64,000 nt of DNA, taken from Vicinamibacteraceae bacterium. Its GTDB lineage: Bacteria; Planctomycetota; Phycisphaerae; Phycisphaerales; UBA5793. The stretch spans positions 3,386 to 67,385 of the forward strand of contig WYBR01000059.1 in the NCBI GenBank assembly GCA_011525805.1, in the 5' to 3' direction. The stretch's first letter is position 1, and each line of letters begins with the position of its first letter. This document shows positions 5,569 to 61,345 of the stretch, piece after piece. The notes under the pieces were generated by a model, which did no database searches, was not told where the DNA came from, and worked only from the letters and a program-made list of their open reading frames with translations. The translations under genes were made by a program, and so were the position numbers.

Positions 5569-7107
5569 TCACGACGATCGGATCTGAAGATCGCGCTCGA
5601 TCACATCGAGCCGGCGGTCGAACGAGGCGTCGTTGGCGCGCAGCCGGCTGATCTTCTTGACCGCGTGCATCACCGTGGTGTGGTCGCGCCCGCCGAAGAA
5701 CCCGCCGATCTCCTGGAGGCTGTGGTTGCTGTGGCACCGCGCCAGATACATGGCGACCTGCCGCGGCAGGGTGATCGACTTGTGCCGATCCTTTGAGAGC
5801 AGGTCCGTCTGCTTGACCTCGAAGTGGCGCGCGACGGTGGAGATGATCGCCTGCACGCTTACGATCGGCGCCAGAGGCGCGGGGACCTCGCCCAGGGCCT
5901 CGCGCGCCAGTTCCGCGTCGATGGTCCGGCTTGTCGCCATCGAGAGCGCCTGGAGTTGTGTGAGGGCGCCTTCCAGTTCGCGGATGTTCGAGTCGGTGTG
6001 GTGGGCGATGTAGCACAGCACGTCGTCGGGCAGCGAAAGGCCGCGCAACTTCGCCTTGATGCGGAGGATCGCCAGCCGTGTCTCGTAGCAGGGCTTGTCC
6101 ATCCGCGCCACGAGGCCCTGCTTGAAGCGGCTGAGCAGCCGGTCCTCCAGTTTCGGGATCTCGTTTGGGGCCGCGTCTGAACTGAGGACGATCTGCTTGC
6201 CCATCTGCCACAGGCTGTTGAACGTGTGGAAGAACTCCTCCTGCGTCCGATCGTGCGCGGCGAGGAAGTGGATGTCGTCGACGACGAGGACGTCGATGTC
6301 GCGGAACTTGTGGCGGAACTCGAGCATCTGCCCCGCCTGCACCGCCTCCATGAACTGGCTGACGAACCCTTCACAGGAGACGTAGTAGATGCGGCAGCCG
6401 GGCTGGGTCGTCAAGATCGCCTGGCAGATCGCCTGGAGGAGGTGCGTCTTGCCCAGCCCCACCCCGCTGTGAATGAAGAACGGGTTGTACGCCACCCCCG
6501 GCTGCTGCGAGACCGCCACCGCCGCGGCGTGCGCCAGGCGGTTGTTCGGCCCGACGACGTAGGTCTCGAACGAGTAGTCCGGATTGATGACCATCTCGTC
6601 GTAGATGGTCCCCCAGACCGGCCCGCCGTGGCGCACCGGGGCGGGCGGCGCCGCAACCGGCGGCGGCCCCGAGGGCTCCGCCACGGACGACCCCTTTGGG
6701 CGAGGGGGCGCGGCCAGCGCGGCCGACAGCGCCGCCTGGCCATTCACCGCGCCATTGCCGTGCCCGTTGCTGGTGCCGTTGGTCGATGCGCCGGGCGCGG
6801 CCGGAGCGCCCTCGTTCACCGGGGGGTTCGCGGGAATCGTCGTCACCATCGGAAGATCCTCCGTGGAGACGAAGACCACGCTCAGCAGCATCCCCGTCAC
6901 GCTCTGCGCCGCCTCGCGGAACACCTCCATGCACTCGCGCTGCAGGTAGCGCAGATGTACGGGGTTGCACGTGCGCAGCGTGAGCAGTCCGCCGGCGAGG
7001 CCGGCCATTTCGATCGCCTCAAACCACTGCCGGCACCGGGCGGGATGATGCTTCTTGAGGTGCGCAAGGATGCCGTCCCAGATCTTTGGATCGGGGTGAG
7101 TTGCCAT
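5569..7107 (-). CDS. dnaA: Chromosomal replication initiator DnaA
   Basis: ORF 5569..7179. The ATG at 7107 gives MATHPDPKIWDGIL. Walker A GVGLGKTHLL, VVDDIHFL box, C-terminal DNA-binding region ...GGRDHTTVMHAVKKI. Confidence 0.95.
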   Translation of the reverse strand: MATHPDPKIWDGILAHLKKHHPARCRQWFEAIEMAGLAGGLLTLRTCNPVHLRYLQRECMEVFREAAQSVTGMLLSVVFVSTEDLPMVTTIPANPPVNEGAPAAPGASTNGTSNGHGNGAVNGQAALSAALAAPPRPKGSSVAEPSGPPPVAAPPAPVRHGGPVWGTIYDEMVINPDYSFETYVVGPNNRLAHAAAVAVSQQPGVAYNPFFIHSGVGLGKTHLLQAICQAILTTQPGCRIYYVSCEGFVSQFMEAVQAGQMLEFRHKFRDIDVLVVDDIHFLAAHDRTQEEFFHTFNSLWQMGKQIVLSSDAAPNEIPKLEDRLLSRFKQGLVARMDKPCYETRLAILRIKAKLRGLSLPDDVLCYIAHHTDSNIRELEGALTQLQALSMATSRTIDAELAREALGEVPAPLAPIVSVQAIISTVARHFEVKQTDLLSKDRHKSITLPRQVAMYLARCHSNHSLQEIGGFFGGRDHTTVMHAVKKISRLRANDASFDRRLDVIERDLQIRSS

Positions 7108-8213: not shown

Positions 8214-8313
8214 CGAAAAATCTCCGCACCCGGACTTCCGCCCGGAGAGGATCAGAGGGCAAAGCGGAACGCAAGGGCATCATACCGCCGCAGACGCACG
8301 AGGCGAGGAACGC

Positions 8314-8539
8314 GACCAGCCCGAAGCGCCAGCGAGGAATCGAGCAGCGCAGCGACGAGAAGAACGCGGGGAGATGCAGGATCGAAGGCCGCTCACGCAG
8401 AGGCGCAAAGTGCGCAGAAAAGGATGCGCCTTGGCGAATCTCAGCGCCCTCAGCGCCTCTGCGTGAGGTTGACTTCCGGCTGCGGAATCGAGTTGTCGCT
8501 TCGCGCTCCCTTCCTCGCTGGCGCTTCGGCCCGGTGGTC
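8314..8539. repeat. Inverted-repeat element of the GCCGAAGCGCCAGCGAGGA family
   Basis: Left arm gaccagcccgaagcgccagcgaggaa (8314..8339). The right arm at 8511..8539 reverse-complements to gaccaccgggccgaagcgccagcgaggaa. Lies in the divergent region between 7296..8213(-) and 8639..9151(+). Confidence 0.65.
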
Positions 8540-9915: not shown

Positions 9916-11369
9916 ATCATCCGCCCCACGCTCGCGAGGGCCGCTTCGTGCACCGCCTCGTTCATCGTGGGGTGCGCGTGGACGGTGTTGATGATGTCCT
10001 CGGCCGTCGCTTCGAGGCTGCGGGCCAGGGCGAACTCGGCGATGAGTTCCGTCGCCTCGGCGCCGATGAGATGCGCGCCGAGAATCTCGCCGTGCGGAAT
10101 GCTCGTGAGCAGTTTCACCAGGCCGACGTTCTCGCCCTCGGCGATCGCCTTGCCGTGCGCCTTGAGTTGGTAGGAGCCGACGTTGTAGTCCTTGCCCGCG
10201 ACGAGGCCCGCTTCCTTGAGCGCTCGCTCGGTGCGGCCGATGCTCGCCACCTGCGGATGGCAGTAGGTGCAGCCGGGGATGGAGTCGTAGTCGACGCCGA
10301 CGCAGTCGTGCCCATTCATCCGTTCGACGCAGGCGACGGCCTCCTCGCTCGCGACGTGCGCGAGCCACGGCGGGCCGATGACATCGCCGACGGCGTAGAT
10401 GCCCGGCGCGCTGGTCTGGTAGGTCGGATCCTCGACGCCGCGGTACGCGACCTTGATGTGGTCCTTGAAGGTCTCGATGTTGAGCGATGAGTCAAACAGC
10501 CCGTCGTAGCGGCCGCGCACGCCGATCGCCACGAGCACGACGTCCGCCTCGATCGTCTCGGTCTTCGCCTCGTCGCCCGTCGCGGCGATGGTGACGCTCA
10601 GACCGCCTTTGCCTTTGTCGATCTTCTTCACGACGTGGCCCGTGCGGATGTTGATGCCGGACTTCTTGAACTCGCGCTCGAGCACCTTGCTGATGTCATC
10701 ATCCTCGATGGGCAGGAGGCGGTCGAGCATTTCGACGATGGTGACCTGCGTGCCGAAGGCGTTGTAGAAGTAGGCGAACTCGACGCCGATCGCCCCGGCG
10801 CCGACGATGAGCAGGCGCTTGGGTTGCACCGCCAGCGTCATCGCTTCCTTGGCGGCGATGATGGTCGTGCCGTCGAAGGGGGCGAAGGGCAGTTCGCGCG
10901 GCACCGAGCCGGTGGCGATGAGCACCTTCGGCGCCGTCAGGGTGTGCTGTCTGCTCCCGCCGGGCTTGTCGAAGACCTGCACCTCGCAGGGCAGCGTCGG
11001 CCTGGCCGCGCGGGTGATCTTCGCGTGGCCGGCAAAGTGCGTGATCTTGTTCTTCTTGAAGAGGAAGTGGATGCCCTTGTTGAGTTGATCGGCTACGCCG
11101 CGGCTGCGGCCGATGACCTTCTCCCAGTTGTGGCTGAGGCGCTCGAACTCAAAACCCCAGTCCTTGCCGTGCTGGGCGACCTCCTTGTAGAGGTAGGCGT
11201 TCTTGAGCAGGGCCTTGGTGGGAATGCAGCCCCAGTTGAGGCACACGCCCCCGAGCAGGTCGCGCTCGATGCAGGCGACTTTCATGCCCAGTTGGGCGGC
11301 GCGGATGGCCCCGACGTACCCCCCGGGGCCGCCGCCGATGACGATGAGATCGAATTGCGTGTCCGACAT
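9906..11369 (-). CDS. lpdA: Dihydrolipoyl dehydrogenase
   Basis: The ATG at 11369 gives MSDTQFDLIVIGGGPGGY. Redox-active CLNWGCIPTK, second dinucleotide fold IVGAGAIGVE, C-terminal HAHPT. Confidence 0.93.
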   Translation of the reverse strand: MSDTQFDLIVIGGGPGGYVGAIRAAQLGMKVACIERDLLGGVCLNWGCIPTKALLKNAYLYKEVAQHGKDWGFEFERLSHNWEKVIGRSRGVADQLNKGIHFLFKKNKITHFAGHAKITRAARPTLPCEVQVFDKPGGSRQHTLTAPKVLIATGSVPRELPFAPFDGTTIIAAKEAMTLAVQPKRLLIVGAGAIGVEFAYFYNAFGTQVTIVEMLDRLLPIEDDDISKVLEREFKKSGINIRTGHVVKKIDKGKGGLSVTIAATGDEAKTETIEADVVLVAIGVRGRYDGLFDSSLNIETFKDHIKVAYRGVEDPTYQTSAPGIYAVGDVIGPPWLAHVASEEAVACVERMNGHDCVGVDYDSIPGCTYCHPQVASIGRTERALKEAGLVAGKDYNVGSYQLKAHGKAIAEGENVGLVKLLTSIPHGEILGAHLIGAEATELIAEFALARSLEATAEDIINTVHAHPTMNEAVHEAALASVGRMIHG

Positions 11370-47902: not shown

Positions 47903-48051
47903 GGCGCCGCATCGCGGGCACACGAACACACCATATACTTATAATATTTTGGTACATCGCTCCGCGGGCGGCGGAGGCCGCCGCACCGTCTCCGGCGCGC
48001 TGGCGCCTGGGGCTGGCGGTGGGAGGCGATGCCGCGGCGCCATGCGAAACC

Positions 48052-48196
48052 GGGCCGAAGAGCCAGCGAAGACGCGAGGAGCGAAGCGACGAGGGCGCGG
48101 CCATGCGATCATTCGCGCTGGCGCGTCGCGCGGACGGGAGCATCACAAGGCGCATCGCTTCGCTCTGCGTCCTTGCTGGCCCGTCGGGCTCGCAGG
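48052..48196 (+). repeat. Repeat family 1 hairpin element, copy upstream of the GT2 gene
   Basis: ggccgaagagccagcgaagacgcgaggagcgaagcga...tcgcttcgctctgcgtccttgctggcc. The arms are complementary. About 85 percent identical by eye to 49065..49206. Confidence 0.7.
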
Positions 48197-48254
48197 TGGG
48201 GGGGGCCGGCGCGAGGCGCCGCGTCGCGCGGGGACGGTCGCCCGGGCGCACGCT

Positions 48255-49055
48255 ATGCTCCTGCCCAGCATGGCCGAGCCGCACGAGTGTCAGATTGAAC
48301 TCTCCATCATCGCGCCGGCGCACAACGAGGAGGAGAACGTCGGCCCGCTCGTCGAGGAGATTCACGCCGCGCTCGCCGGCTTCGTCGAACTCGCGGGGCG
48401 ATTCGAGGCGATCATCGTCGATGACGGCTCGACCGACCGTACCCTCGAACGGCTGACATCGCTCATGACGGTGCGGCAATGGCTGCGCGTGGTGCGGATG
48501 ATGGACACGCCGCCGGGGCGCGGGCACGGGCAGTCGGCCGCGTTCCACGCCGGGCTGCGCCACGCGCGCGGCGAGATCGTCGCGCTGCTCGACGCCGATC
48601 TCCAGAACGATCCCGCCGACCTCCCGCGCATCCTCGAAATCATGCGGCAGACCGGGGCCGACCTCGTGCAGGGCGATCGCTCACTGAACCGGCGCGACAC
48701 CGCGGGTCGGCGGGCGGCGAGTTGGGTCGGTCGGTCCTTCCGCCGCCTCCTCCTCGCCGACACCATCCGAGACACCGGCTGCTCGCTGCGCGTCATGCGC
48801 CGCGAAGTCGCGCTGGCCATCCCGCTCGAGTTCCACGGCATGCACCGCTTCATCCCGCTCACGGCGCGGCAACTGGGCTACACCGTCATCGAAACGCCCG
48901 TCTCGCATCGGCCGCGCACCGCGGGCGCGGCGAAGTACGGCGTCTTCAACCGCGCGCTGCCGGGCCTGCTCGACTGCCTCGCCGTGCGATGGATGCACCG
49001 GCGCAGACGCCCGACGCGCGCCAGCGAAATCACGCGCGAGGACGCGCCAGATTGA
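48255..49055 (+). CDS. Family 2 glycosyltransferase (polyprenyl-phosphate sugar transferase-like)
   Basis: ATG at 48255 or 48270. LSIIAPAHNEEENV, IIVDDGSTD, LLDADLQND (DxD), GCSLRVMRRE. Confidence 0.85.
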   Translation: MLLPSMAEPHECQIELSIIAPAHNEEENVGPLVEEIHAALAGFVELAGRFEAIIVDDGSTDRTLERLTSLMTVRQWLRVVRMMDTPPGRGHGQSAAFHAGLRHARGEIVALLDADLQNDPADLPRILEIMRQTGADLVQGDRSLNRRDTAGRRAASWVGRSFRRLLLADTIRDTGCSLRVMRREVALAIPLEFHGMHRFIPLTARQLGYTVIETPVSHRPRTAGAAKYGVFNRALPGLLDCLAVRWMHRRRRPTRASEITREDAPD

Positions 49056-49064
49056 GTCCAATCA

Positions 49065-49206
49065 GGCCGAAGTGCCAGCGAGGACGCGAGGAGCGAAGCG
49101 AAGAGGGCCGCCGCCCAAACGGCCGCGCTGGCGCGTCGGGCAGGCGGGAGCATCACAAAGCGCATCGCTTCGCTCCGCGCCCTTGCTGGCGCTGCGGGCT
49201 CGCGGG
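49065..49206 (+). repeat. Repeat family 1 hairpin element, copy downstream of the GT2 gene
   Basis: ggccgaagtgccagcgaggacgcgaggagcgaagcga...tcgcttcgctccgcgcccttgctggcg. Same orientation as 48052..48196. Confidence 0.7.
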
Positions 49207-49217
49207 GGCGGGGGGGG

Positions 49218-49746: not shown

Positions 49747-50367
49747 GTGCCTGATCACGAACCCAACCCGGCGCCTCGGCGCCCGCCGTCGGCCGGCCTG
49801 CTGCTGGTCATCTCGGGCCCTTCGGGGGTCGGCAAGACGACGATCACGCGCCAAGTGGTCGATCGGCTCGGGGCCGTCTTCAGCGTCTCGGCCACCACGC
49901 GCCCCCCAACCGCGGCCGACACGCCGGGGGTGGACTACCACTTTGTCAGCGACGAGGAGTTTCAGCGGATGATCGCGGCCGGCGACCTGCTCGAGTACGC
50001 CCGGGTTTTCGGCAAGTTTTCATACGGGACGCCGCGTCGGCCCGTCGAAGAGGCCCTTGCTCAGGGAAGGGTGGTCCTGTTGGAGATCGACGTGCAGGGG
50101 GCGCTCCAGGTGCGGGCCAACCTGCCCGAGGCGCTGCTGGTGTTCATCTTGCCGCCGGATGACGCGACCCTGCTTGAGAGGCTCAGAAAGCGGGGTCGGG
50201 AAGGGGAGGAGGAGATCGCCCGGCGCTTCGCCGAAGCCAAGCGGGAGATCGCCACGGCGGAGGGGAGCGGGGCCTATGACCTGTTCCTGGTGAACGATGA
50301 GGTCGAAAAAAGTGTGGCCGAAGTGTGTTTTGCGGCAAGGAAGCGCTTGCAGGGAGGCGTCAGGTAG
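49747..50367 (+). CDS. gmk: Guanylate kinase
   Basis: ISGPSGVGKTT P-loop, SATTRPP, EYARVFG..YGTP. Start uncertain: the GTG at 49747 gives a typical length, and the ATG at 49642 would overlap the neighbouring gene. Confidence 0.85.
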   Translation: MPDHEPNPAPRRPPSAGLLLVISGPSGVGKTTITRQVVDRLGAVFSVSATTRPPTAADTPGVDYHFVSDEEFQRMIAAGDLLEYARVFGKFSYGTPRRPVEEALAQGRVVLLEIDVQGALQVRANLPEALLVFILPPDDATLLERLRKRGREGEEEIARRFAEAKREIATAEGSGAYDLFLVNDEVEKSVAEVCFAARKRLQGGVR

Positions 50368-50426
50368 GGTACATTCTCTAGACCGGAAGTCCGGCTGACC
50401 GGAACCAGACGCTGGAGGACGCGCCC

Positions 50427-51197
50427 ATGAGGCCCCATCGCCCCGCCGCCCGCAAGGGCTTCACCCTCATCGAACTTCTCGTGGTGATCTCGATCATCGC
50501 GCTGCTGATTGGCCTGCTGCTGCCGGCGCTGCAGCAGGCGCGGGAGTTCGGCCGGGCGACCGGCTGTCTTTCCAACCTGCGCCAGATCGGCTTTGCCGCG
50601 ACGGCGTACATCAACGACAACAATCTCGTGCCGCGCGAGGCGGCGAGTATTCCGGGCCGAGACATCGCCTGGGCACTTGCCTTCCGGCCATACTTCTCGA
50701 AGATCAAGGATGACCGGTTCGAGTCGGTACCGATGTACCGGTGCCCGGACCATCCGAACAAGGCACACTGGCTTCACTTCGTCATCAATGCGTTCAATTT
50801 CAGTCGGCCCGGGCAGGTGTACGGCGACCGTCGGGAGGAGCACAAGCCGAATCTGATCTACTTTCCCAGCCAGACGATCTACATGGCGGACTTCACCGAC
50901 GACTCACAGAATATTCTCGTGAACGCGTGGTACGCGCAGGGGCAAAACACGCACGAGAACAACGTCGTGATCTGGTACGACATCTGGGCGGCTGTTCATG
51001 TCCAGCGGCCGATCGAAGGACAGCAGAATGGATTGCGACTGGAGCCGCGCCGACACGTCGGCGGCAGCAACGCACTCTTCCTTGACGGACACGCCGCAAG
51101 GCTGCCCGAGGAAGACATGCAGAACCTCGATAACTGGGACGATCGGACCTACTTGCGAGGCAACGTGAACGATTACGAGCGCAACCGGTATCGGTAA
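50427..51197 (+). CDS. Prepilin-type N-terminal methylation domain protein (DUF1559-like)
   Basis: [31 protein letters not shown], then CLSNLRQIG, and C-terminal [14 protein letters not shown]. Confidence 0.85.
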
Positions 51198-51208
51198 ACG
51201 CCAGGTAG

Positions 51209-51226
51209 GTCAGGTCGCGACCTGAC
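51209..51226. repeat. 18-bp perfect palindrome GTCAGGTCGCGACCTGAC
   Basis: Lies 12 nt after the stop of 50427..51197. Possible terminator stem, but no T-tract. Confidence 0.5.
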
Positions 51227-51316
51227 ACGGCGTGCAAGCGCCGCCGATCGTGCGGAAGGCGTGAATCGGGATTCATGCGACGGGACGACGTGCGCCGCAG
51301 CGCCGCACACGCGAGC

Positions 51317-51334
51317 GTCAGGTCTCGACCTGAC
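51317..51334. repeat. Near-identical palindrome GTCAGGTCTCGACCTGAC
   Basis: Second copy, starting 108 bp after the first and 20 nt beyond the stop of the sdhA 3' fragment. Confidence 0.5.
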
Positions 51335-51354
51335 CGACGGCTGGACCCGCCCCC

Positions 51355-51453
51355 TCACACACTCGCCGCGACCTTCTCCTTGGCCGGCTTCTTCTCCGCC
51401 GCGACCTTCTCGACTTTGCCGTAGGTCCGCGCCTTGGGTTTGGCGAGGCCCAT
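51355..51453 (-). pseudogene. Orphan duplicate of the last 32 codons of sdhA
   Basis: Encodes MGLAKPKARTYGKVEKVAAEKKPAKEKVAASV*. Compare ...MGLAKPKARTYGKVEKDAAEKKPAAEKVAAASA* at 53318..53419. No upstream sdhA sequence is attached. Confidence 0.75.
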
Positions 51454-51570
51454 CTGCTCTGGGCATGATCGTTGCGGCTCGGCGGGCATTCCGCCGATAC
51501 TCTGACGTACAATGGTGAAGTGCCGCCCGGAGATCGGCGGGCGGGCGCGCCCCAGCCCGGCGTCCACGCG

Positions 51571-52374
51571 ATGAAGAGCCCCAAGTACAAGAAGCCGCCT
51601 GTCGTCGAGACCGTCCTCGGGGTGCAGTTCCCGGAGATCGCTGAGTTCGGCAACGTTCACTTCGGGCTGTACTGGGAGACGATCCGCGAGCGCTACCCGA
51701 AGCCGCCGCAGAATCAGCCGCGCATCGCGTGGGCCGTGGAGACTTTTCCGTACCGACCGCTGCCGGCGGGACTGAATCTGCGCCTCAGCGATCGGGGGCC
51801 GCAGCGCATGTGGTTCACGGCCGAGAGCGAATCGGAACTCATCCAGGTCCAGCCGGACCGCTTCCATTTCAACTGGCGCGGTGAGGAGGGCAAGCCGTAT
51901 CCGTCGTACCGGGCCAACTCGCGGAAGTTCTTCGATGAGTTCGCGGGCTTTGAGGCCTTCTGCAAGGGGCAGGGCTGGGAGCCGCCCAGACCGAACCTGG
52001 CGGAGGTTACCTACGTCAACCACATCCTCCCAGTGGAGGGAGAGACGAGCATCGAACTCTTCCAGAAGGCGTTCGTCGGCGTCGACTTCACGGAGGTGGT
52101 CGAGATGCCTTGCCTGCCGGAGCGGGCGGTCTTCAACCGCGTCTATCCGATGGAGGGCGAGAAAGGACGGCTGTACGTCGAGGCGAATCTGGCGCAGAAG
52201 CGCGACCGCACGGAGTTTGTGCTGCTCAAGATGACGGCGCGGGTGATCGTCCCTCCCACCGGTGCGGTTCCATTGGCCGAGGGCCTCCAGAAGGCGCATG
52301 ACTGGGTCGTGGGCGGCTTCGCGGCCATCACGCGGCCCGAGATTCAGCAGCAGAGATGGGAGCGGATTGAATGA
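51571..52374 (+). CDS. TIGR04255-like uncharacterised protein (cassette gene 1)
   Basis: The ATG at 51571 gives MKSPKYKKPPVVETVLGVQF, which matches the N-terminal signature I recall for the TIGR04255 family. 267 aa. Its stop overlaps the next start (ATGA). Confidence 0.7.
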   Translation: MKSPKYKKPPVVETVLGVQFPEIAEFGNVHFGLYWETIRERYPKPPQNQPRIAWAVETFPYRPLPAGLNLRLSDRGPQRMWFTAESESELIQVQPDRFHFNWRGEEGKPYPSYRANSRKFFDEFAGFEAFCKGQGWEPPRPNLAEVTYVNHILPVEGETSIELFQKAFVGVDFTEVVEMPCLPERAVFNRVYPMEGEKGRLYVEANLAQKRDRTEFVLLKMTARVIVPPTGAVPLAEGLQKAHDWVVGGFAAITRPEIQQQRWERIE

Positions 52375-52883
52375 ATCCCGACATGCTCGAGTATGCACCA
52401 ACCGGCGCGGCCTTCAGCACCTGGCGCGTGGAGGAACGCGTGGAGGAACTTGCAGCGAGCGCACTCGGCGACACTGTCGTGCTGGAGAAGCATCGAACGC
52501 CGGTCTTTGCGGTGCGCACGGCGCCGGCGCCTTGGTTCGCCTCTGTCAACCAGGCCATCCTCCGCCTTGCTGACCGCAGTGAGAACTGGGACAGTTACGG
52601 GGCAAAGGCGATTGATCCGGCCGCGGTCGCGAACGCAACGCGCATCGCGCGCGAGTTGGCCATGATCGAAGGCGTCGCACGGCCCGTGGTGGGCGGCACG
52701 CCGGACGGTGAAGTTGTGTTCGAGTGGGACACCGGCGAGTGGAGCCTCGACCTGACCGTCGATCCATCCGACCAGTTCCACTACGCCTATCTGGATCGGC
52801 TCGATCCGGCGTGCGACGATGAACAATACACGCGGAACCTCGACGATCTACTTGTCCTGCTCACGCAACTTCCGAGGCGCTGA
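52371..52883 (+). CDS. Unknown protein (cassette gene 2)
   Basis: 170 aa. ...ENWDSYGAKAIDPAAVANATRIARELAM...PVVGGTPDGEVVFEWDTGEWSLDLTV. No family recognised. Its stop overlaps the next start (TGATG). Confidence 0.68.
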   Translation: MNPDMLEYAPTGAAFSTWRVEERVEELAASALGDTVVLEKHRTPVFAVRTAPAPWFASVNQAILRLADRSENWDSYGAKAIDPAAVANATRIARELAMIEGVARPVVGGTPDGEVVFEWDTGEWSLDLTVDPSDQFHYAYLDRLDPACDDEQYTRNLDDLLVLLTQLPRR

Positions 52884-53308
52884 TGGGCGCGGGTGAAGAC
52901 GACGCCGATCTTGCCAACGCCTCTCCTCTGGTGGAATCAGAGACGCTGATTCGCCGAGTTCTTCCGGACGGGATCGTCGAGCGGCCCGGCATCGGGTGGA
53001 CGGCCCAATCAGGCGCGCTCAGAGCCACCGACGATGACCCGTACCCTTCGTGGAGCCTCCTTCGAGTCACATCACCGCAGCGCCTTATCGAGATTGAGTC
53101 CATGCGGCGAGATACACGCGGCTGGCACGTTGTGGCCATCTCCATCGGGCAACTCGCAGCACTCGGAATCACGGTGGTTACAGATCCCACTGAAGAGGAT
53201 CCCGGTCACTGCATCCTCAAACCCGCCGATGCTGAGCCGTTCAAGGGCAAGTCGATCTGGAAAAAAGTTGCCGAACGCACACGCGTCGTCTACACCCATC
53301 CCTCCTGA
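52883..53308 (+). CDS. Unknown protein (cassette gene 3)
   Basis: 141 aa. ...LIRRVLPDGIVER...SGALRATDDDPYPSWSLLRV...VAISIGQLAALGITVVTDPTEEDPGHCILKP. Ends 9 nt before the sdhA stop on the other strand. Confidence 0.65.
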   Translation: MGAGEDDADLANASPLVESETLIRRVLPDGIVERPGIGWTAQSGALRATDDDPYPSWSLLRVTSPQRLIEIESMRRDTRGWHVVAISIGQLAALGITVVTDPTEEDPGHCILKPADAEPFKGKSIWKKVAERTRVVYTHPS

Positions 53309-53317
53309 TCGCCTTAC

Positions 53318-55210
53318 TCACGCGCTTGCCGCCGCGACCTTCTCCGCGGCCGGCTTTTTCTCCGCCGCGTCCTTCTCGACCTTGCCGTAGGTCCGCGCCT
53401 TGGGTTTGGCGAGGCCCATGGTGATGTCCTCGTAGCGGATGCTCGGGCGGCCGCTGCCGGGTTCCCACTGCGCCACGGTCGTCTTGAGGAACCGCTCATC
53501 GTCGCGCTCGGGATAGTCGGTGCGGTAGTGCGCGCCGCGACTTTCCTTGCGCATCAGGCCGCCGAGGAGAATCACCTCGGCGAGTTTGAGCATGTCGCCC
53601 ACCGCTCGCGCGAAACTGAGGTTCTGGTTCGTCCACAGGCCGTGGTCGGCGAGGCTGATGCGCGAGTAGCGGTCCTGGAGTTCGTGCAGCACCGCCATGG
53701 CCTGCGTCATGCGGGCCTCGGTCTTCACGACGGTCGAGGCGGCGGTCATCTCCGCCCCCATCTCGTGCGCAATGACGTAAGGATTCTCGGGGCCGCTTGC
53801 GTCGATGAGGTTCTGCATCTTGCGCGTTTCTGACTCGACGGCGTCGTCGAAGAGGCCCGCGGGCCGATCGGCCGCGGCGACGGGCAGGCTGCGCACGCGT
53901 TCGGCGATGCCCTTGCCGGCAAAGAGGCCGTCGAAGGTGCATGAGAGCAGGGCGTTGGCGCCGAGGCGCGTCGCGCCGTGGTACTGGTAGTTGACCTCGC
54001 CCAGCGCGTAGAGGCCCTCGATGTTGGTCATCATGGTGTTGGGCGCGCCGTAGACCATGCCCTTGCCGTCGGCCTTGGCGGTGTAGGTCGCCCACATCCC
54101 GCCCATGGTGTAGTGGACGGCGGGGAAGATCTTCATGGGCAGTTCGCACGGATCGTCGCCGGCGAACTTGCGGTAGATGTCGAGGATGCCGCCGAGTTTG
54201 GTTTCGAGGTATTCGCGCGGCTTGTGGGTGAGGTCGAGGTAGACCATGTTGCCCCCGCCCACGCCCAGGCCCAGGTTCACGCACACGTCGAAGATCTCGC
54301 GCGTGGCGATGTCGCGCGGCACGAGGTTGCCGTACTTCGGATACTTCTCCTCGAGGAAGTACCAGCGTTCGCTCTCGGGGATCTGGCGCGGGTCGCGGCT
54401 ATCGCCGGCCTTTCGCGGCACCCAGACGCGGCCGCCCTCGCCGCGGGCGGACTCGGACATGAGGCGGCACTTGTCAGCGCCGGGGATGGCGGTGGGGTGG
54501 ACCTGGATGAACTCGCCGTTGGCGTACCACGCGCCGGCCTGGTAGCAGCGGCTCGCCGCGCCGCCGGTGCAGACGATCGAGTTGGTGGACTGGCCGAAGA
54601 TCAGCCCGTTGCCGCCGGTACACATCACGACGGCATCGCCGCGGAAGGCGCGGATCTGCATCGTGCGCATGTCCTGGGCGACGCAGCCGACGCACACGCC
54701 GCTGTCGTCGAGGATCGGCCAGAGGAACTCCCAGAACTCATACTTGGTGACTTTGCCCTCGGCCTCGGCGCGGCGGGTCTGTTCGTCGAGGGCGTAGAGC
54801 AGTTGCTGGCCCGTCGTCGCGCCGGCAAAGAAGGTGCGCTTGAAGAGTGAGCCGCCGAAGAGCCGCAGGTCGCGGTTGCCTTCCGGCGTGCGGTTGAAGG
54901 GCACGCCCATGCGGTCGAAGAGGTCGATGATGCGCGGCGCCCAGTGGGTCATCTCATAGACGGGGGGTTGATGGGCGAGGAAGTCCCCGCCGTAGAGCGT
55001 CTCCTCCATGTGGATCCACTCGCTGAATCCCTGCTGCCGCGCAACTTCGTTGCAGGCGTTGATCCCGCCCTGGGCGCAGACGGAGTGGGATCGCTTGACG
55101 GGGACCATGGAGATGAGATCGACGGCGATGTCTTCCTCGGCGAGTTTGATCGCGGCCGCAAGCCCGGCGAGTCCGCCGCCTACCACAATGACGCGTTTGC
55201 TGGAAGTCAT
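53318..55210 (-). CDS. sdhA: Succinate dehydrogenase/fumarate reductase flavoprotein subunit
   Basis: 630 aa. VVGGGLAGLAAA FAD fold, RSHSVCAQGGI (His for covalent FAD), HYTMGG, ESRGAHYR. Confidence 0.95.
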   Translation of the reverse strand: MTSSKRVIVVGGGLAGLAAAIKLAEEDIAVDLISMVPVKRSHSVCAQGGINACNEVARQQGFSEWIHMEETLYGGDFLAHQPPVYEMTHWAPRIIDLFDRMGVPFNRTPEGNRDLRLFGGSLFKRTFFAGATTGQQLLYALDEQTRRAEAEGKVTKYEFWEFLWPILDDSGVCVGCVAQDMRTMQIRAFRGDAVVMCTGGNGLIFGQSTNSIVCTGGAASRCYQAGAWYANGEFIQVHPTAIPGADKCRLMSESARGEGGRVWVPRKAGDSRDPRQIPESERWYFLEEKYPKYGNLVPRDIATREIFDVCVNLGLGVGGGNMVYLDLTHKPREYLETKLGGILDIYRKFAGDDPCELPMKIFPAVHYTMGGMWATYTAKADGKGMVYGAPNTMMTNIEGLYALGEVNYQYHGATRLGANALLSCTFDGLFAGKGIAERVRSLPVAAADRPAGLFDDAVESETRKMQNLIDASGPENPYVIAHEMGAEMTAASTVVKTEARMTQAMAVLHELQDRYSRISLADHGLWTNQNLSFARAVGDMLKLAEVILLGGLMRKESRGAHYRTDYPERDDERFLKTTVAQWEPGSGRPSIRYEDITMGLAKPKARTYGKVEKDAAEKKPAAEKVAAASA

Positions 55211-61137: not shown

Positions 61138-61345
61138 GACCAGGCCGAAGCGCCAGCGAGGACGAGAGGCACGGCCGCGAAGAGGCACAAGAGGCGCAGA
61201 GCGAGATCGAACCAACCGAAGCGCTGGAGATGCCGAAGCCCTCCACCGCGGCGCCGTGCTTCGCGGCTCTCTGAGCAAAGCATGGCGAACGGGCAAGCAC
61301 AGCCGTTCGCCCTTGCCTCTCGGCACACATCGCCCGCCTTCGGTC
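61138..61345. repeat. Repeat family 1 copy with degenerate right arm
   Basis: Begins gaccaggccgaagcgccagcgaggacgagaggcac. The distal gcctctcg...ccttcggtc pairs only partially. Contains the internal hairpin ggcgaacgg(n10)ccgttcgcc. Confidence 0.5.

Follow-up and report, generated by a model that had tools for sequence, protein, structure and literature searches.

A three-gene cassette between two copies of the sdhA 3' end in a Phycisphaerales species, best interpreted as an old recombination scar maintained as a polymorphism by the host's own recombination

The element e14 and phage 21 integrate at the 3' end of the icd gene in E. coli; both use their own integrase and are excised site-specifically. 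Chromosomal segments are also lost precisely by RecA-dependent recombination between short direct repeats. Displaced ("orphan") gene 3' ends are found in Rhs, CDI and T6SS effector-immunity arrays, where they are attributed to homology-facilitated illegitimate recombination; displaced ends of this kind are a known by-product of anchored events (PMC5361080). Here we describe a locus, within a 64,000 nt stretch of contig WYBR01000059.1 (the whole of which is called "the window" below), in which the 3' end of a succinate dehydrogenase gene is present on both sides of a small gene cassette.

The window's sdhA gene (53318..55210, minus strand) encodes a 630 amino acid succinate dehydrogenase flavoprotein that matches NCBIfam NF006392 above its curated cut-off (E = 2.4e-272) and contains the Pfam domains FAD_binding_2 and Succ_DH_flav_C. 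It is the last gene of a DUF1844-sdhC-sdhA block that is syntenic in about 50 Phycisphaerae loci. The original prediction, made from the letters of this DNA, was that the terminal ~100 nt of sdhA occur twice in direct orientation, and a repeat search of the window agrees: 51364-51453 and 53330-53419 form a 90 nt direct repeat with 94% identity, spanning the last 32–33 codons of sdhA, and this tail pair is the single outstanding direct-repeat family in the window. When the orphan region was compared with the whole window by BLAST, tail copy 2 was matched at E = 5e-36 and all remaining matches were at most 14 nt long (E = 3.2). Tail copy 2 (53318..53419, minus strand, 33 codons and stop) is contiguous with sdhA and is translated as MGLAKPKARTYGKVEKDAAEKKPAAEKVAAASA before its stop; tail copy 1 (51355..51453, minus strand, 32 codons and stop), the orphan or displaced, untranslated sdhA 3' end, would read MGLAKPKARTYGKVEKVAAEKKPAKEKVAASV before its stop. 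From the shared Met codon the copies are identical for 38 nt (51416-51453 and 53382-53419), so the predicted identity holds and only its length, given as 36 nt, needs correction. Beyond this run there are, much as predicted, five substitutions at four places: two synonymous Lys changes (AAA/AAG), a GTC to GAC change (Val/Asp), and an adjacent pair that turns AAG to GCG (Lys/Ala). The predicted 3 nt indel lies just ahead of the stop together with two further substitutions, both copies keep an in-frame stop, and the similarity between them ends abruptly, exactly at the Met codon, again as claimed.

The 1,864 bp between the copies (51454-53317) hold three plus-strand genes, here c1, c2 and c3, whose starts and stops overlap or abut, making up an operon of a TIGR04255-family gene and a fast-evolving pair that points convergently at the sdhA end. 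None of the three has an integrase or transposase match in Pfam, NCBIfam, PHROGs or PADLOC, in keeping with the original reading of the insert. The c1 and c3 models, both of which AF2 gave with confidence, matched no known recombinase in a Foldseek comparison with the PDB. No integrase is annotated in the 10 kb to the left or to the right of the cassette; a cryptic recombination activity of c1, c2 or c3 is conceivable. The conserved first gene of the triad, c1 (51571..52374, plus strand, 267 amino acids), scores 58.6 bits against TIGR04255 (NCBIfam cut-off 30), with its residues 5–263 on profile positions 1–251 of 252, and has 357 homologues. The top PDB matches of its model (pLDDT 93) are TBP and helix-grip/START folds, and these are weak (E about 5e-3); by this modelled TBP-like fold c1 is possibly a DNA-binding protein. 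The C-terminal part of the hypervariable c2 protein (52371..52883, plus strand, 170 amino acids) resembles the C-terminus of PADLOC PDC-M32A (E = 4.8e-5, only positions 262–333 of 375 matched). The equally hypervariable c3 (52883..53308, plus strand, 141 amino acids) has 61 relatives, in whose alignment R25, S56 and H109 are invariant; c3 itself matches PDC-M32B at E = 0.054, and nine of 45 members of its family do so at E <= 0.01 (best E = 1e-7). The c3 model (pLDDT 92) has its top TM-scores with ADP-ribosyltransferase-fold proteins (DarT, AvrPphF, Tse2), none of them significant. The c2-c3 pair is thus weakly related to the PADLOC candidate PDC-M32. The triad possibly has a defence or toxin-type role and is a reasonable candidate for a toxin/antitoxin or anti-phage system.

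The G+C contrast that had been noted for the insert is weak as stated (0.639 versus 0.674 for the window), and third-position composition is more telling: GC3 is host-like in c1 (0.86) and low and foreign-looking in c2 (0.75) and c3 (0.66), against 0.81–0.92 in neighbouring genes. The c3 stop is 9 nt from that of sdhA, and the spacer between the tail copy 2 3' end, GCAAGCGCGTGA, and the c3 stop is 9 nt in all three filled haplotypes of the window's species; GCAAGCGCGTGA itself is cassette-linked in the same three of three. There is no sdhA terminator ahead of c3. A terminator-like hairpin with a T-run on the cassette (plus) strand lies inside tail copy 2 (53331..53350) and is created by substitutions peculiar to the window's copy (-18.4 kcal/mol versus -9.5 for the orphan equivalent), although the scan gave 4 such sites versus 2.5 expected, and on that basis alone this one is not significant.

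A chimeric join or mis-resolved strain variation might yield such a duplication, since the window's sequence is metagenome-derived and both filled and empty haplotypes of the species are in public data, although no one sample was seen to contain the two. However, at least four independent assemblies, made with different assemblers, back each junction, which excludes misassembly there, and the architecture recurs on a 74-kb contig of a diverged relative. The window's layout is also that of JGI contig Ga0307786_1001106. Of the Logan contigs, L103 spans the left junction, and L104 and L105 run over the right one into sdhA. Logan unitigs of 1,988 bp, present in more than 30 runs, end exactly where a 38 nt repeat is bound to interrupt a k=31 graph. 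An artefact is thus effectively refuted, and we give it almost no weight.

Strains 98–99% identical to the window have one tail and lack the cassette; they occur in at least 11 samples and as two haplotypes, L088/L113 (99% identical over sdhA) and L114-L117 (98.8% over 7.8 kb, in at least 10 sequencing runs). Logan k=31 unitigs pass unbroken through the tail of these strains, indicating that it is single-copy. The sought empty site therefore exists, not all relatives have two copies, and the cassette is a true presence/absence polymorphism within one Phycisphaerales species. The single tail has the bases of the intact copy at variants 1–2, followed by an orphan-type 3' end and downstream DNA. 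It equals what one copy crossing over with the other would produce, if the exchange fell in the 45 nt block that the copies of the L099-type haplotype have in common without a mismatch. We note that a crossover product looks alike whether read as integration or as deletion.

The DNA 3' of the orphan is the same as that 3' of the single tail in empty-site strains. Just past the orphan stop is a palindrome, GGTCAGGTC-NCG-GACCTGACC (51316..51338), which has no T-run after it, is the first palindrome 3' of sdhA on the sdhA strand, and probably is the original sdhA terminator hairpin; it is found past the single tail in L113/L088 and past the orphan in the relative L089 (below). A second copy (51205..51227) lies just past a DUF1559 prepilin-like gene, "type W" (50427..51197, plus strand), and the two palindromes bound a ~146 nt segment that is absent from the empty haplotype L114. 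The type W gene is tied to the filled haplotype; empty-site strains have a 46%-identical paralogue in its place, and because of this different paralogue they are not one-step deletions of the window haplotype.

The relative L089, ~82% identical in nucleotide sequence, has both tail copies, the cassette and the junction positions of the window, in the same order (sdhA, c3, c2, c1, orphan tail, palindromes, DUF1559-W), and such an architecture in a clearly diverged relative indicates that the event is old. The c1 protein is 86% identical between the two, as compared with 84–94% for the flanking genes. In a third genome, L090 (SdhA 89% identical), c1-c3 converge on sdhA in a donor-type architecture without a second tail in its 14.8 kb, and its left flank has been remodelled by a permease insertion; either the orphan was later lost there or the cassette stood beside sdhA before the duplication. 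The c2 protein is 58% identical to that of L089 and 53% to that of L090, and c1 86% and 64%. The left junction and cassette leader (51454..51570, plus strand) holds a block, GCCGATACTCTGACGTACAAT (51493-51513), that is conserved in both relatives, at a distance from the repeat end of 39 nt in the window as against 38 nt in L089; its TACAAT is a possible -10 element, and a consensus promoter scan of 50300-54300, GCCGATACTCTGACGTACAAT included, found no promoter-like site. The L099 haplotype is 96% identical to the window through c1, is essentially unalignable from about 52390 to about 53256 save for a 177 nt stretch at 71%, and then is alignable again; identity plotted in sliding windows and the gradient in GC3 likewise fit swapping of a c2-c3 module. 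A recent, discrete island was considered and rejected, since L089 has the same layout, L090 has no orphan, and c1 diverges like the flanks and has host-like GC3. Of the predicted integration footprint with a replacement end, the duplication, the cassette-linked 3' end and the empty sites thus stand, and its discrete, recent nature does not.

At five sites the two copies within a genome share a genome-specific base, and at none is a base tied to the copy type in different genomes alike, a sign of gene conversion between the tails. Recurrent insertions, independent in each lineage, would account for this 5-versus-0 pattern as well. The orphan tails of the two lineages are 84% alike and both keep an open frame and stop, far better conservation than in the essentially unalignable intergenic 51200-51299 (0.31), which lies past the orphan and its palindrome, and this might be taken to mean that the orphan is kept for a function, either as a small protein (the 44-codon ORF 51355-51489) or as an RNA element. 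Such an element might pair in antisense with the end of sdhA, or it might supply the true 3' end and terminator to an sdhCA transcript running antisense through the cassette. The lack of an sdhA terminator ahead of c3 and the position of the first palindrome past the orphan would suit the latter. We consider such a function improbable: the Met codon is lost in L089, where no ATG, GTG or TTG lies between the upstream stop and the orphan, making a conserved small protein unlikely and showing that no longer conserved gene includes the orphan, a situation that would have undone the original reading. In addition, the orphan is dispensed with in L090 and in every empty strain, Rfam gave no match, hairpin energies are no better than those of shuffled sequence, and gene conversion from the selected copy accounts for the conservation without any function.

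The main rival is that the repeats are attL and attR of a site-specific integrative element that targets the sdhA 3' end and brings a replacement end, as e14 and phage 21 do at icd, and that decayed and lost its integrase and other genes, or of a satellite mobilised in trans by a recombinase encoded elsewhere. As in integrase islands, the flanking direct repeats of ~100 nt hold the 3' end of the target gene and the gene is restored in frame, a classic footprint; empty sites exist, the junctions fall at the same places in two diverged lineages, which is what site-specific integration would produce, and c2 and c3 have foreign-looking GC3. The triad was found in seven loci that represent six genomic contexts, and in Gimesia (L111) and L112 it is 2–3 kb from Phage_integrase genes, in L111 also near a portal-protein gene, so it can travel as island cargo. 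But no flanking repeats surround the triad in those integrase-linked contexts or in two others (L093 and L096), a search of viral contigs for the tail found none, and the integrase-free neighbourhood, the single-tailed L090 cassette and the co-divergence of host-like c1 with its flanks all argue against an island. Decay would moreover have to strip all but three genes and spare the repeats to within 9 nt on one side and about 40 nt on the other. We regard this reading as possible but rather unlikely. There is also a slim chance that the triad and one sdhA tail together make up a minimal mobile cassette that lacks a recombinase gene, whose ~100 nt tail serves as its attachment site and which repeatedly enters and leaves the sdhA 3' end through a host, trans-acting or own protein, c1 with its weak TBP-like fold being one such protein; if true, this would give identical junctions and similar copies within a genome in two diverged lineages without gene conversion.

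The best explanation, to which we give a fair preponderance of belief, is an origin by recombination anchored on sdhA 3' end homology and upkeep by host recombination; the junction is then an old scar, kept polymorphic by this recombination, and not a mobile island whose recombinase has simply gone unseen. One side offers a homologous anchor, the other side shows an abrupt joint without homology, and after the orphan comes native downstream DNA; by eye, the only hint of microhomology at the joint is a CAT / GGGCAT resemblance near 51451-51475. A donor "sdhA end plus cassette" may have come in by homology-facilitated illegitimate recombination, with the joint at the Met598 codon, or by a single Campbell-type crossover of a circle bearing a tail copy; either would give sdhA a replacement end and push the resident end downstream. 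Host homologous recombination would thereafter convert the tail copies against each other, holding the non-coding orphan at 92–94% likeness to the selected copy, and an occasional crossover between them would delete the cassette precisely and yield empty alleles. The same machinery would also swap the variable c2-c3 from strain to strain, breaking at the c1/c2 boundary and close to the end of c3 or the sdhA tail.

The locus is a clean natural case of an accessory cassette at the end of an essential respiratory gene that is left unharmed through a replacement end; its 90 nt scar makes the cassette precisely removable and is probably kept "fresh" by gene conversion. It also shows that, in this Phycisphaerales clade, a variable hotspot lies 3' of sdhA, and it defines a conserved, uncharacterised module, TIGR04255 plus a hypervariable PDC-M32-like pair. 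By itself it does not reveal a new mobility mechanism.

Like e14 and phage 21, the cassette is inserted at the 3' end of a central-metabolism gene, which stays intact with a slightly different replacement end, and the original end forms an orphan direct repeat (about 100–165 nt) on the far side; unlike them it has only three genes, none a recombinase, and its structure is common to lineages about 18% diverged, with concerted evolution. As with Rhs, CDI and T6SS orphans, there is a conserved 5' anchor, a module with its own 3' end shifts the resident end downstream without turning it round, an integrase plays no part, the pair of genes alongside is hypervariable, and orphans can recombine back. 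Here, however, the anchor is a housekeeping enzyme and not a toxin, the displaced part is a 32-codon low-complexity tail rather than a toxin domain with an immunity gene, and the cassette is convergent, not co-linear. With PDC-M32, an unvalidated PADLOC candidate, the locus shares an adjacent two-gene arrangement and the match of c2 to the C-terminal ~90 residues of PDC-M32A, but c2 has 170 residues to the 375 of M32A, whose N-terminal two thirds are absent, and the conserved TIGR04255 gene of the triad is an addition that PDC-M32 does not have. RecA-type deletion fits without differences: a 90 nt repeat with exact blocks of 38–45 nt lies 2 kb apart, the empty alleles correspond to the crossover product, and such deletion is an ordinary part of the explanation.

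The sdhA gene (53318–55210, minus strand) follows sdhC and a DUF1844 gene, and its 3' end is present twice in direct orientation. A repeat search of the window reported one outstanding repeat, 90 nt at 94% identity (51364–51453 and 53330–53419), and a BLAST comparison of the orphan region (the displaced tail copy, 51355–51453) with the window found the second copy at E = 5e-36 and no other match better than E = 3, confirming the duplication described in the original prediction. On the sdhA strand the two copies share their initial Met codon, and each closes with an in-frame stop. Their initial block of identity is real, but is 38 nt long rather than the 36 nt first counted; it is followed by five substitutions and, at the extreme end, by a 3-nt indel (both as described) and two further changes. 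The 1,864 bp between the copies contain three plus-strand genes whose stops and starts overlap or abut, c1 (51571–52374), c2 (52371–52883) and c3 (52883–53308), and the c3 stop is 9 nt from that of the convergent sdhA gene. Searches of four profile libraries bear out the statement that this cassette includes no integrase or transposase.

Both junctions are crossed by independent contigs. JGI contig Ga0307786_1001106 has a layout identical to that of the window, Logan contig L103 spans the left junction and the entire orphan, and Logan contigs L104 and L105 span the right junction into sdhA. In addition, 1,988-bp Logan unitigs in more than 30 runs correspond to 51424–53411, and they end at these points because a k=31 graph must break at the 38-nt exact repeat. 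Misassembly, raised in the original prediction as a point to check, is thus excluded.

A degenerate search of metagenome contigs with the tail peptide gave two loci, L088 and L089. The first (WBZO01011598.1, full contig L113) shares 99% identity with the window across sdhA, after which it runs directly into the orphan tail and its downstream DNA (window 51453–51202) without the cassette. A second empty haplotype (L114–L117), 98.8% identical over 7.8 kb, is present in at least 10 Logan runs, whose k=31 unitigs cross the tail unbranched; its tail is therefore single-copy and the empty site is real, not an assembly collapse. The anticipated empty site, an sdhA gene with a single 3' end, thus exists in two haplotypes, and the cassette is a presence/absence polymorphism in which the filled form carries the gene end twice in direct orientation, with the gene itself restored and the displaced end still joined to its native downstream DNA.

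The filled architecture is old and shared between lineages. L089 (Ga0326597_10000438), which has ~82% nucleotide identity to the window and an SdhA that is 94% identical, shows the complete layout, with sdhA followed by c3, c2 and c1, then another tail copy (97 nt, 92%), a pair of palindromes and the window's DUF1559 gene. In a third lineage, L090 (GCA_002418285.1, SdhA 89% identical), c1–c3 are also convergent on sdhA; a second tail is absent throughout its 14.8 kb, and left of c1, where the orphan would be, there are a permease gene and an 82-codon ORF. The nearest species-level genomes among GTDB representatives are Phycisphaerales/Phycisphaerae MAGs (SdhA 65–75% identical, the closest about 70–75%), whose loci conserve DUF1844-sdhC-sdhA, usually with sdhB directly after, and have neither a second tail nor a cassette homologue. 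We note that sdhB directly follows sdhA in most Phycisphaerae relatives and was not found in the 64-kb window (tblastn, Sporosarcina SdhB query, E ≤ 1e-5); the sdhCAB operon is split in the window's clade and likewise in L010, L047 and L042.

The gene-attached copy (53318–53419) ends in GCAAGCGCGTGA plus a 9-nt spacer to c3 in all three filled haplotypes of the species (the window, L099 and L103), while the orphan and both empty alleles end in AGTGTGTGA followed by GGGGGCGGG or GGGCGGCGC. In the empty alleles, the one tail present agrees with the gene-attached copy at variant sites 1 and 2 and has an orphan-type end, and in the L099-type haplotype the two copies share a 45-nt identical block precisely where a crossover is placed. 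The empty-allele tail matches the product of a crossover between the two copies; integration would leave the same pattern, so the direction of the event is not readable from the tail. In the comparison of the window with L089, a genome-specific base is common to both copies at five sites, and at no site does each copy type match its counterpart in the other genome. Orphan similarity across the two lineages is 84% (intergenic DNA beyond the orphan and palindrome, 51200–51299, aligns at 0.31), and the distance from the end of the repeat to a conserved c1 leader block (GCCGATACTCTGACGTACAAT, 51493–51513) measures 39 nt in the window against 38 nt in L089. The shared bases within genomes, the conserved orphan and the matching leader distance together point to one old event, probably followed by gene conversion from the copy under selection; recurrent site-specific insertion may be an alternative.

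Sequence change is much faster in the Lys/Ala/Glu-rich SdhA tail than elsewhere in the gene, and in the filled strain L103 (positions 1–110, window 53300–53405) the gene-attached tail differs at 8 of 75 positions in a contig that is 98.2% identical overall. A terminator-like hairpin and T-run for the cassette transcript lie antisense within the sdhA tail (53331–53350, plus strand), created by two substitutions particular to the window's gene-attached copy (GCG for AAG and AAA for AAG); its stability is -18.4 kcal/mol versus -9.5 for the orphan equivalent, and the terminator scan overall was not above chance.

The orphan is not part of a longer functional gene, which had been named as a possible refutation: the 348-codon antisense ORF that includes it (51355–52401) overlaps c1, a gene with 357 homologues, and the only ORF that the gene caller retained on the orphan has 44 codons and lacks a start codon in L089. 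A functional role for the orphan as a small protein or RNA element is unlikely, since this start codon is not conserved and the orphan is missing in L090 and the empty strains; the junction has no Rfam match to a known RNA.

The c1 protein scores above the NCBIfam TIGR04255 cut-off, and its homologues are mostly from Planctomycetota and other environmental bacteria. Its AF2 model (pLDDT 93) has weak likeness to TBP and helix-grip/START folds (E about 5e-3, TM 0.2–0.35), and its Foldseek matches in the PDB include no recombinase. The c2 protein has a match (E = 4.8e-5) in the C-terminal portion of PDC-M32A, a PADLOC candidate. An exhaustive search found 61 relatives of c3, with R25, S56 and H109 invariant, and 9 of 45 family members match PDC-M32B (best E = 1e-7). 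The top TM-scores of the c3 model (pLDDT 92) are with ADP-ribosyltransferase-fold proteins (DarT, AvrPphF ORF2 and Tse2), a likeness that is only a lead because every match has E > 0.2. Sequence searches of the PDB with c2 and c3 gave no match; in the literature we found no mention of TIGR04255, and PDC-M32 only in passing. The four profile libraries and the two confident structure models lead us to reject a recombinase concealed in the cassette, which is an uncharacterised three-gene module, possibly of defence or toxin type. Three IMG/VR viral contigs (L118–L120) encode distant TIGR04255-family relatives, 28–35% identical to c1, and these are the only cassette-side matches in viral contigs, in which the tail is absent.

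The three genes have not had the same history. Compared with L089, protein identity is 86% for c1 and 84–94% for the flanks, versus 58% for c2 and 53% for c3, and in a sliding comparison identity falls abruptly where c1 meets c2 and rises again close to the end of c3. L099 is 96% identical to the window through c1, essentially unalignable from ~52390 to ~53256 (apart from one 177-nt stretch at 71%) and alignable beyond. GC3 falls from 0.86 in c1 to 0.75 in c2 and 0.66 in c3, compared with 0.81–0.92 in host genes. The identity drop, the L099 exchange and the GC3 gradient suggest that c1 is a long-term resident and that c2–c3 form a module replaced by recombination. In L099 (1466–1903) the c2 allele differs from the window's and c3 is broken into ORFs of 61 and 64 codons, so the third gene has probably become a pseudogene there.

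The triad recurs as a conserved unit in six genomic contexts, beside sdhA (the window, L089 and L090) and in L093, L096, L111 and L112, answering the question of whether the cassette occurs elsewhere; no direct repeats flank it in the non-sdhA contexts or in L090. It follows valS in L096, lies 2–3 kb from a phage-type integrase and a portal-protein gene in L111 (Gimesia), and in L112 points towards a release-factor gene in convergent orientation, 3 kb from an integrase. These integrase-linked contexts and the footprint itself match a decayed or trans-mobilised integrase island, a serious alternative that we nevertheless consider rather improbable, as it would need extensive and very tidy decay and conflicts with the host-like history of c1. 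We note that L096 also carries, 3.8 kb downstream and past the triad, a 184-nt inverted copy (96%) of valS codons 818–878 (5988–6171 and 9941–10124), a second housekeeping-gene fragment duplicated beside the triad; being an inverted copy of an internal segment and not of a 3' end, it is a different signature from the sdhA-tail repeat.

The surrounding DNA is also variable. The DUF1559 prepilin-like gene left of the orphan (50427–51197; 3527–4147 in L113 and 7910–8608 in L114) is of one type in the filled window and L089, and is replaced in L113 and L114, strains otherwise 98–99% identical, by a different paralogue with 46% protein identity to the window's gene and 75–79% to two tandem paralogues of L090. 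This difference marks the entire gmk-sdhA interval as a recombination hotspot and not a single-event site. Two copies of the palindrome GGTCAGGTC-NCG-GACCTGACC (at about 51208–51227 and 51316–51335) are the only ones in the window, with 0 expected by chance, and L089 likewise has two. They bound a ~146-nt segment (51202–51347) that is in the window and the empty L113 and missing from the empty L114, a second small indel polymorphism at the locus. A glycosyltransferase gene (48255–49055) lies between ~160-nt direct repeats (48048–48205 and 49060–49215, 87–90% identical), and shorter copies near 8311–8537 and 61139–61169 indicate a dispersed intergenic repeat family.

The original observation is thus confirmed, and its interpretation as the footprint of integration into a gene's 3' end is partly supported: the restored gene, displaced end and empty sites agree with it, while the old shared architecture and host-like c1 speak against a discrete, recent island. 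We infer that the cassette was inserted by recombination anchored on sdhA homology. In one possible route, a donor fragment arranged as in L090 (sdhA end plus cassette) entered by homology-facilitated illegitimate recombination, the illegitimate joint lying at the Met codon; in the other, a circle with a copy of the tail integrated through one crossover. Later host recombination would account for conversion between the copies, loss of the cassette from some strains and the exchange of c2–c3 alleles. Structures of this kind are known, in which an insertion brings a replacement end for the gene it enters and leaves the gene end duplicated, and the locus is a new example. Homology-facilitated illegitimate recombination, the first of the two routes suggested here, has also been put forward to explain the displaced 3' ends of Rhs and T6SS arrays (PMC5361080).
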